64,000 nt of DNA, taken from sequence record OW991345; one strand, given 5' to 3'. This stretch comes from Escherichia phage vB_Eco_AL25. Made by a program: the position numbers and the translations under genes. How positions within the stretch are numbered: position 1 is the stretch's first letter; the number at the start of each line of letters is the position of its first letter. This document shows positions 1,722-2,666 of the stretch, piece by piece. The notes beneath the pieces were generated by a model. It saw only the letters and a list, made by a program, of their open reading frames with translations, had not been told where the DNA came from and did not search any database.

Positions 1722-1756
1722 GAAGCCTCCGGTTAATCCTGGAGGCTTTTTTATTT
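1722..1756 (+). terminator. rho-independent terminator
   Basis: AAGCCTCC...GGAGGCTT stem followed by TTTTTTATTT. Confidence 0.6.
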
Positions 1757-1775
1757 AATTAAATAAGGAAGCAAG

Positions 1776-2147
1776 ATGAACCGTATTACTGAAGAACATA
1801 TTGATAGCATCATTGAAGGTGCTTACTACTTCAATATGGCTAAAGCTGTAGAGAATGAAGCAGTTCTGATTCCTGAAGACCATTTAAAAGCATTGAGTAC
1901 AACTACTGTTTGTGCACTGGTTCTTTCTAATGGGTTCACTATTACTGGTAAATCTGCTTGTGTTGACCCTAATACCTTCAATGAGGAGTTAGGTAAGAAA
2001 TATGCTTACGAACAGGCCGTTGATAAGGTATGGGAATTGGAAGGCTATCTGCTTAAGCAAAACCTGCATGAGAAAGCTCAGAGCCAGGAAATGCTAAAAG
2101 AGTTCCTGCAAGATGACAACTGTGAAGGTGGGGGCTGTAAAATCTAA
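1776..2147 (+). CDS. hypothetical protein (123 aa); may correspond to one of the last rightward genes before vRNAP in N4
   Basis: ORF with RBS AAGGAAGCAAG; conserved-looking block VLSNGFTITGKSACVDP...WELEGYLL; stop overlaps next start (ATGGAAATT). Confidence 0.6.
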   Translation: MNRITEEHIDSIIEGAYYFNMAKAVENEAVLIPEDHLKALSTTTVCALVLSNGFTITGKSACVDPNTFNEELGKKYAYEQAVDKVWELEGYLLKQNLHEKAQSQEMLKEFLQDDNCEGGGCKI

Positions 2148-2632
2148 TGGAAATTAAAGTTCACTTTACTAATTACATCGGAACCAAATGTGTAAATGGT
2201 TTCCCGATGAACAAGGCTGACTACTGCAAACTTCGTGGTTGGGATGTACCTACTAATGAAGACCAGTTAGAAGAGGGTTACTTAGTAGAGTACCCCGATT
2301 CTAAACCTAACCATGAACAATTCCGTGGTTATATTAGCTGGTCACCTAAAGCTGCATTTGAAGAGGCATACTGTGATGTAGACAAAGGCTGCACGTTTGG
2401 CCACGCAGTAGAGCTTATGAAATCAGGTTTTAGAATGTCCCGTAAGGGCTGGAATGGAAAAGGAATGTATATCACATTGGTATCCGGTGAAAACTGGGCT
2501 ATGGATAAACATGAAAATACCGTATGCATGAAACGGGATTGGCTGGGTATTAAAACCGCTGACAATGAATTTATGCCCTGGGTTCCATCTCAATCAGATG
2601 TATTAGCAGAAGATTGGGTACTAGCTCAGTAA
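2147..2632 (+). CDS. DUF2829 (Thoeris anti-defence Tad2-like) domain protein with an extra N-terminal domain (161 aa)
   Basis: C-terminal half TFGHAVELMKSGFRMSRKGWNGKGMYITL...WVPSQSDVLAEDW matches my recollection of the DUF2829 signature; N-terminal half ends ISWSPKAAFEEAY, a weaker copy of the same tail motif. Confidence 0.5.
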   Translation: MEIKVHFTNYIGTKCVNGFPMNKADYCKLRGWDVPTNEDQLEEGYLVEYPDSKPNHEQFRGYISWSPKAAFEEAYCDVDKGCTFGHAVELMKSGFRMSRKGWNGKGMYITLVSGENWAMDKHENTVCMKRDWLGIKTADNEFMPWVPSQSDVLAEDWVLAQ

Positions 2633-2636
2633 GAAA

Positions 2637-2666
2637 TAAAGCCCCTCTAGTGAGGGGCATTTTTTA
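2637..2666. terminator. bidirectional rho-independent terminator between convergent gene blocks
   Basis: GCCCCTC-TAGT-GAGGGGC followed by ATTTTTTATT; A-rich on the other side. Confidence 0.7.

Follow-up and report, generated by a model that had tools for sequence, protein, structure and literature searches.

Two short overlapping genes of Escherichia phage vB_Eco_AL25 (sequence record OW991345) lie between a tRNA cluster and the convergent vRNAP gene, and their position raises the question of whether they belong to the replication functions encoded nearby or form an accessory unit directed against host defence. An earlier note on this DNA, prepared from the sequence alone, had described a two-gene cassette insulated by terminators and had considered its moron-like arrangement typical of accessory or anti-defence cargo. 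The locus was analysed within the window, i.e., the whole stretch of 64,000 nucleotides, in which positions 1300-2700 share 100% identity with Escherichia phage vB_Eco_SPSP and 97.6% with phage N4, a member of the genus Enquatrovirus. The gene order in N4 is SSB, gp46, gp47 and the tRNAs, then gp48 and gp49, followed by the vRNAP gene. The first position of the window corresponds to about position 31,840 of the 70,979-bp SPSP record OV049961; the 64-kb window overruns the end of this linear record, which probably reflects a differently permuted or concatenated assembly of the same phage.

Layout of the locus and its non-coding surroundings

The coordinates of the identified features are collected in Table 1. 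Both genes were located where the earlier note had placed them, between the tRNA cluster and the vRNAP gene, and the predicted overlap was seen as a single base: the last base of the ORF1 stop codon TAA (2145-2147) is also the first base of the ORF2 ATG (2147-2149), giving TAATG. Strong Pfam matches, the annotation in N4 as gp48 and gp49 and hundreds of homologues indicate that ORF1 and ORF2 are real genes.

Table 1. Features of the two-gene locus, in window coordinates
Feature	Position	Strand	Description
tRNA genes Asn, Ser, Thr, Pro	596-1274		upstream of ORF1
Terminator-like hairpin	1721-1756	+	stem and loop 1721-1750, then T-run; 12-bp GC-rich stem, 6-nt loop
Shine-Dalgarno-like AAGGAAG	1765-1771	+	4 nt upstream of ORF1 start codon; read from sequence
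ORF1	1776-2147	+	123 aa, ATG start; annotated in N4 as gp48
ORF2	2147-2632	+	161 aa; annotated in N4 as gp49
ORF2 N-terminal domain	2171-2377	+	aa 9-77, alpha/beta module of ~70 aa, no Pfam model
ORF2 C-terminal domain	2390-2623	+	aa 82-159, Tad2 / DUF2829 sponge domain
Bidirectional terminator	2634-2666	both	GC-rich 7-bp stem 2641-2658, T-run on each strand
vRNAP ORF	2667-13187	-	3506 aa, convergent with ORF1-ORF2

The flanking terminators were likewise recovered, each with its T-runs. The folding energy of the upstream hairpin (1721-1750) was -18.6 kcal/mol (z -4.9), and the downstream hairpin (2641-2658) reached -15.8 and -14.9 kcal/mol on the two strands (z -4.0 and -3.6); none of 200 dinucleotide shuffles was as stable as any of these three folds. 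Positions 1-3500 contain seven terminator-like sites, versus 3.1 expected. Judged from its sequence, the terminator-like upstream hairpin would end the transcript of the tRNA cluster approximately 20 nt before ORF1, and the bidirectional terminator, annotated as two terminators in OV049961, appears to be common to ORF2 and the convergent vRNAP gene. The claim that the pair is an insulated, independent unit is therefore only half supported, by the terminators on both sides: a sigma-70 scan identified no promoter on the + strand upstream of ORF1, where the gap between hairpin and start codon measures only 25 nt. The N4 RNAPII promoters, described in the literature as AT-rich, starting at T and composed of two motifs, are outside the scope of such a scan. 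With a terminator immediately upstream, expression of the two genes would need either read-through or a phage-specific promoter overlapping the terminator.

The tRNA genes are separated from the upstream hairpin by approximately 450 nt in which neither ORFs nor Rfam matches were found, and the Rfam search of positions 400-2700 returned the four tRNAs and nothing else. Three long hairpins were observed in the spacers of the tRNA cluster, at 847-940, 1077-1189 and 1277-1360 (-40.4, -44.8 and -29.8 kcal/mol, with z values of -6.0, -8.8 and -5.5, respectively), over which neither an Rfam family nor an ARAGORN call was obtained. In the hairpin at 1077-1189, a stem of 27 bp closes a junction with a tRNA T-arm-like hairpin (UUAGGUUCGAAUCCUAA), and the public record places a 'tRNA-Undet' immediately upstream of the hairpin at 1077-1189, at window positions 1013-1078. 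A non-coding stretch at about 1355-1468 is shared, at 93-98% identity, with Gamaleyavirus-type phages (St11Ph5, nithesis, ST4 and others), in which the flanks have diverged. The corresponding matches in ECBP1 and Bp4, from about window position 1370, overlap an annotated tRNA-Ile or tRNA-Xle; in the window, ARAGORN and Rfam gave no tRNA at about 1355-1468, and the fold was not unusually stable (z +1.2).

Sponge families encoded by ORF1 and ORF2

The product of ORF1 matched the Pfam family PF13876 (Phage_gp49_66) over the full model (1-82; E 6.8e-35, 119.9 bits against a cut-off of 27) and is identical to N4 gp48 at 120 of 123 positions (97.6%), the substitutions being V16A, T101A and G109E. 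The latter two are located outside the core Acb4 domain, which spans about residues 4-97 and is followed by a C-terminal tail. N4 gp48 has the same position, the same neighbours and the same one-base overlap with gp49. On these sequence comparisons, ORF1 is assigned to the Acb4 family as the orthologue of N4 gp48. According to Chang et al., Acb4 is a tetrameric sponge that takes up the cyclic dinucleotides of CBASS, and the family corresponds to PF13876; the N4 protein is included in their Table S3. The name Acb4 was given to N4 gp48 by Doherty et al. (Nature 2025, PMC12657230), who reported that gp48 knock-down restores the plating of N4 on Panoptes and that N4 Acb4 alone sets off Panoptes toxicity. 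N4 Acb4 also binds 3'3'-c-di-AMP with a Kd of 111 nM and triggers the guard system PanDA, from which phage Bas69 escapes through acb4 mutations, and the N4-like phage Bas96, which does not carry Acb4, is not restricted by PanDA (bioRxiv 2026.08.10.743972). Ligand binding and in vivo activity have thus been shown for N4 gp48 by others; the observations made here are the orthology, the domain identities, the pocket residues and the variable presence of the genes.

The founder of PF13876, SPO1 Acb4 (gp1.3; PDB 9e4w), belongs to the same Pfam family, and its beta-core aligns with ORF1, although the direct match to the PDB chain was weak (E 9e-4 over 51 residues). Compared with SPO1 Acb4, ORF1 has an extra N-terminal helix region and a cysteine-containing C-terminal tail. 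Residues of the SPO1 pocket were mapped on ORF1 through the HMMER alignment. The adenine-pocket residues F62, N63 and I66 correspond to F68, N69 and L72, and F48 is retained as F54, a mapping made at weak pairwise similarity. At the positions of the guanine-reading K36 and E49, ORF1 has T42 and T55, and the backbone contacts Y57, T70 and K81 are replaced by V63, Y76 and E87. These sequence changes are compatible with a shifted specificity, which would fit the reported binding of c-di-AMP by Acb4 proteins of Gram-negative phages; c-di-AMP is a ligand of N4 Acb4 but not of SPO1 Acb4. The tail itself (window 2097-2144, residues 108-123 of ORF1) is acidic, carries two cysteines (...DDNCEGGGCKI) and is conserved in the Acb4 proteins of N4-like phages, with the variants DDCEGGACKI and DDCEGCKI; SPO1 Acb4 has no such tail. 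It could form a metal or disulfide site within a tetramer.

ORF2 is 98.1% identical to N4 gp49 and matched PHROG 872 with an E value of 2e-66. Residues 83-159 matched the Pfam family PF11195 (Tad2, DUF2829) at 84.3 bits against a cut-off of 25 (E 8.7e-24), covering model positions 2-72 of 73, and the C-terminal domain has the Tad2 fold, with an N-terminal helix and an antiparallel sheet. In SPO1 Tad2, the contacts to 1''-3' gcADPR or to waters are made by W25, N26, I63, T65, D67, H71, W73, S76, T78 and D79. Eight of these ten residues are identical in ORF2, T78 is conservatively replaced by S150, and H71, a water-coordinating contact, is changed to M143. The nearest known systems are SPO1 Tad2 (gp34.65, PDB 8sme), ModTad2 (9eib) and HgmTad2/AcrIIA7 (8kbi). 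A classical Tad2 is a single domain of about 90 residues, whereas ORF2 has M143 in place of H71 and an additional N-terminal domain of 80 residues. Sequence and fold firmly place ORF2 in the Tad2 family as a member with an added, non-canonical domain.

The resemblance to AcrIIA7 raises the alternative that ORF2 is an anti-CRISPR of this type and not a signal sponge, which we consider very improbable. E. coli carries CRISPR systems of types I-E and I-F and is not known to carry type II-A, which counts against such a role. The authors who defined Tad2 regard DUF2829 proteins as anti-Thoeris sponges, for which Cas9 binding was never shown; the 8kbi structure belongs to the same PDB entry series as the Tad2 structures 8wjc-8wje, and ORF2 retains the residues of the gcADPR pocket, with the two replacements given above. 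The assignment of ORF2 as a sponge does not specify its ligand: members of the Tad2 family differ by clade in what they bind (gcADPR, His-ADPR, N7-cADPR or cyclic oligonucleotides), so the ligand cannot be read from the sequence. In the study that founded the family, one of five Tad2 homologues failed to block type I Thoeris. The searchable literature and the supplementary tables of the sponge papers yielded no experiments on N4 gp49 or its SPSP orthologue, which makes gp49 an obvious Tad2 candidate in a model phage.

Variable content of the slot in N4-like relatives

The presence of the cassette was compared across 26 N4-like loci from IMG/VR, which were anchored on the last 400 residues of vRNAP (55-100% identity) and whose flanks were searched for Acb4, Tad2 and the ORF2 N-terminal domain by means of HMMs. 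Acb4 followed by the N-terminal domain fused to Tad2, in unchanged order and orientation, was found in ten loci, and Acb4 alone in four. One locus (L026) carries the N-terminal domain alone, as a separate 81-aa gene abutting vRNAP; two have an unrelated Tad2 without this domain elsewhere in the flank, and nine contain none of the three. Several of the more distant loci devoid of the cassette show vRNAP directly abutting a backbone of a small membrane protein, gp47-like, gp46-like (RuvC-like) and SSB genes. The one-base overlap is kept in the N4 group and in only two other loci, the genes being separated elsewhere by 90-255 nt.

Identity to the window's proteins in these loci was 44-59% for Acb4, 65-90% for the N-terminal domain and 53-94% for the Tad2 domain, and in one locus the N-terminal domain was 89% identical and the Tad2 domain 58%. 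Since the divergence of the three parts is uncoupled, the cassette appears to be mosaic at the level of domains. In three relatives (L004, L011 and L028), Sequestin (PF21825) is encoded by stand-alone genes, for products of 67-78 aa, between vRNAP and either the gene for the N-terminal domain fused to Tad2 or that for Acb4. Further small ORFs without a family occupy the same slot in relatives, e.g., one for an 82-aa 'MEINPVIGFASVKV...' protein; together with the Sequestin genes, they are candidates for extra anti-defence genes. HNH endonuclease genes were also found in the slot. Such variable content is in line with the preprint of Fedorova et al. (bioRxiv 2026.06.04.730250), in which the stretch from primase to vRNAP in N4-like phages is named an anti-signalling hotspot with Tad2, Tad3, Acb4 and Sequestin. 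A 54-aa ORF at window positions 280-444, with a predicted hydrophobic helix (MATKLLLGVVVFIVL...GGDTKPPDV), marks the inner edge of the slot; it is conserved in nearly all the N4-like loci examined and unannotated in N4 and SPSP.

Instead of universal conservation in an identical context, the comparison revealed 12 of the 26 loci without either whole gene. The description of the pair as accessory cargo is thus borne out by its variable presence, and that as anti-defence cargo by the orthology of ORF1 to the characterised sponge N4 gp48/Acb4 and by the anti-Thoeris Tad2 domain of ORF2; the accessory and anti-defence interpretation is supported. The term moron-like fits only partly: presence varies among syntenic relatives, but independent transcription does not follow, as no promoter was identified and N4 is virulent. 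It could be argued that ORF1 and ORF2 are ordinary middle-class accessory genes of replication or transcription, with no role in immunity and co-transcribed with the SSB-gp46-gp47-tRNA block, since they directly follow this block on the same strand and in the same orientation and the sigma-70 scan gave them no promoter of their own. The nine loci lacking every part of the cassette, several with vRNAP next to the conserved backbone, the viability of escapers of Bas69 with acb4 nonsense mutations (bioRxiv 2026.08.10.743972) and the dedicated sponge character of the Acb4 and Tad2 protein families contradict this explanation and render it very improbable.

It is therefore highly likely, in our assessment, that the two genes form a counter-defence island whose products sequester the small-molecule alarm signals of abortive-infection systems. 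In this proposal, in which we infer the ligand and activity of ORF2, the oligomeric states, the role of its N-terminal domain and co-expression by translational coupling, both sponges would be produced from one bicistronic message. Acb4 (ORF1) would assemble into a tetramer with inter-subunit pockets binding the cyclic dinucleotides made by CBASS cyclases. The Tad2 domain of ORF2 would likewise form a tetramer, the pockets of which would take Thoeris signals derived from ADP-ribose, namely gcADPR or, in certain clades, His-ADPR or N7-cADPR. With both genes, the phage would be protected against CBASS as well as Thoeris, in the manner of the single-chain Acb4-Tad2 fusion of Pasteurella phage Pm86, which blocks type I Thoeris and type I CBASS (Sorek lab, 10.1101/2025.07.12.664507). 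The Pm86 fusion combines the same two sponge families in a single polypeptide, whereas here they are encoded by separate overlapping genes, with an extra domain before Tad2. The natural occurrence of such pairs as single-chain fusions supports a functional pairing of ORF1 and ORF2. The locus would thus be an exchangeable slot, adjacent to the largest gene of a virulent coliphage, in which counter-measures to both CBASS and Thoeris are bundled. According to published work, these sponges are what sets off the guard systems Panoptes and PanDA, so that both the resistance and the sensitivity of N4-like therapeutic phages can be predicted from the presence of such sponges; detection of Acb4 by these guard systems could plausibly account for the patchy distribution of acb4. 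The cassette is already known, as the gp48 experiments are published and the locus has been described as an anti-defence hotspot. In the literature reached, we found neither any test of gp49 nor any mention that its N-terminal domain pairs promiscuously with most of the sponge families known.

The N-terminal domain of ORF2 and its partners

Family scans with the N-terminal domain returned no Pfam match at E values up to 10 and no NCBIfam match. The idea that it is a Sequestin, prompted by PHROG 9467, which joins the domain to an Acb4-like half, was rejected: PF21825 did not match at E values up to 10, and the model is alpha/beta, not all-helical. Homology was found to the 'RyR Tad' protein gp68 of Pectobacterium phage CB1, of which residues 1-86 were compared; gp68 residues 6-68 aligned to positions 1-70 of the profile of the domain with an hhalign probability of 97.1% and an E value of 7.8e-11. 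The BFVD fold search also matched it to an RyR-domain protein of Yersinia phage TG1. By these comparisons, the domain and the N-terminal domain of RyR Tad belong to one unnamed family. The C-terminal partner differs, being an RyR Repeat12-like sponge in gp68 and Tad2 in ORF2, and gp68 adjoins the primase whereas ORF2 adjoins vRNAP. In the crystal, the N-terminal domain of gp68 is domain-swapped via strand beta1 and contributes to dimerisation, and the gp68_N fragment alone has no activity against type I Thoeris (bioRxiv 2026.06.04.730250). The first strand of the ORF2 domain (residues 5-9) has low confidence in the model of the full-length monomer, a feature that a swapped strand could explain but that does not establish one. 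An oligomerisation scaffold is the best-supported reading of its role in gp49, in which the domain would mediate dimerisation by domain swapping, as in RyR Tad.

The study of RyR Tad (Fedorova et al., bioRxiv 2026.06.04.730250) gives no extent of the fusion of this domain to other sponge families. A HMMER search with the domain alone yielded 1288 representative proteins at E values up to 1e-3 and 576 at up to 1e-10, and the best 150 of the 1288 were characterised further. The domain was N-terminal in 110 of these, internal in 25, C-terminal in 11 and essentially alone in four. Pfam identified as partners, with overlaps, Sequestin (PF21825; 52), Tad2 (43), Acb4 (21) and the Acb2/Tad1 hairpin (3) in this set. 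According to our own HMMs, 111 of the best 150 also carry Tad2, Sequestin and/or Acb4, arranged as N-domain-Tad2 (46), N-domain-Sequestin (39), Acb4-N-domain-Sequestin (11), N-domain-Acb4 (7), Acb4-N-domain (4) or other sponge combinations (4); the remaining 39 have no recognised partner. The signature motifs of the domain occur 85-94 times in the table of Sequestin homologues of the Sorek-lab preprint (10.1101/2025.07.12.664507), and diverged motifs occur twice in its Lockin table. No discussion of the domain is given in the preprint, probably owing to a fusion screen built on Pfam families.

This distribution suggests, as a less likely alternative to a scaffold, that the domain is itself a ligand-binding sponge or an inhibitor module, which would make gp49 dual-specific and the cassette an island of three modules. 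Besides its usual fusion to Tad2, Sequestin and/or Acb4, it occurs with the RyR-type sponge and, in a diverged form, with Lockin, and Sequestin was itself discovered by the same logic of fusion to sponges (10.1101/2025.07.12.664507). By the identity ranges given above, no other part of the cassette is as well conserved in N4-like phages. About 25 of its positions are nearly invariant, including the polar K14, R30, E38, E48, N55, S64 and S66, although these residues may be merely structural. The stand-alone 81-aa gene beside vRNAP in L026 would also fit an activity of its own, but the domain seldom occurs in this form (four of the best 150 of 1288 proteins). The gp68_N homologue was inactive against type I Thoeris and contributes to dimerisation in the crystal; it was assayed against this one defence system only. 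An anti-immune module in its own right could act as a sponge for another signal or as a hub conferring on sponges a shared property, e.g., higher-order assembly, and we hold this only tentatively, with the scaffold remaining the preferred reading. Whether scaffold or active, the N-terminal domain of gp49 represents a widespread unnamed module travelling with most known sponge families.

In the 39 of the best 150 proteins without a recognised partner, the C-terminal extensions (P0161, P0219, P0163, P0208, P0143 and others) match none of the sponge HMMs that we built. By guilt-by-fusion, such extensions are candidate sponge domains. Three members of this group (P0121, P0156 and P0197) resemble frameshifted Tad2.
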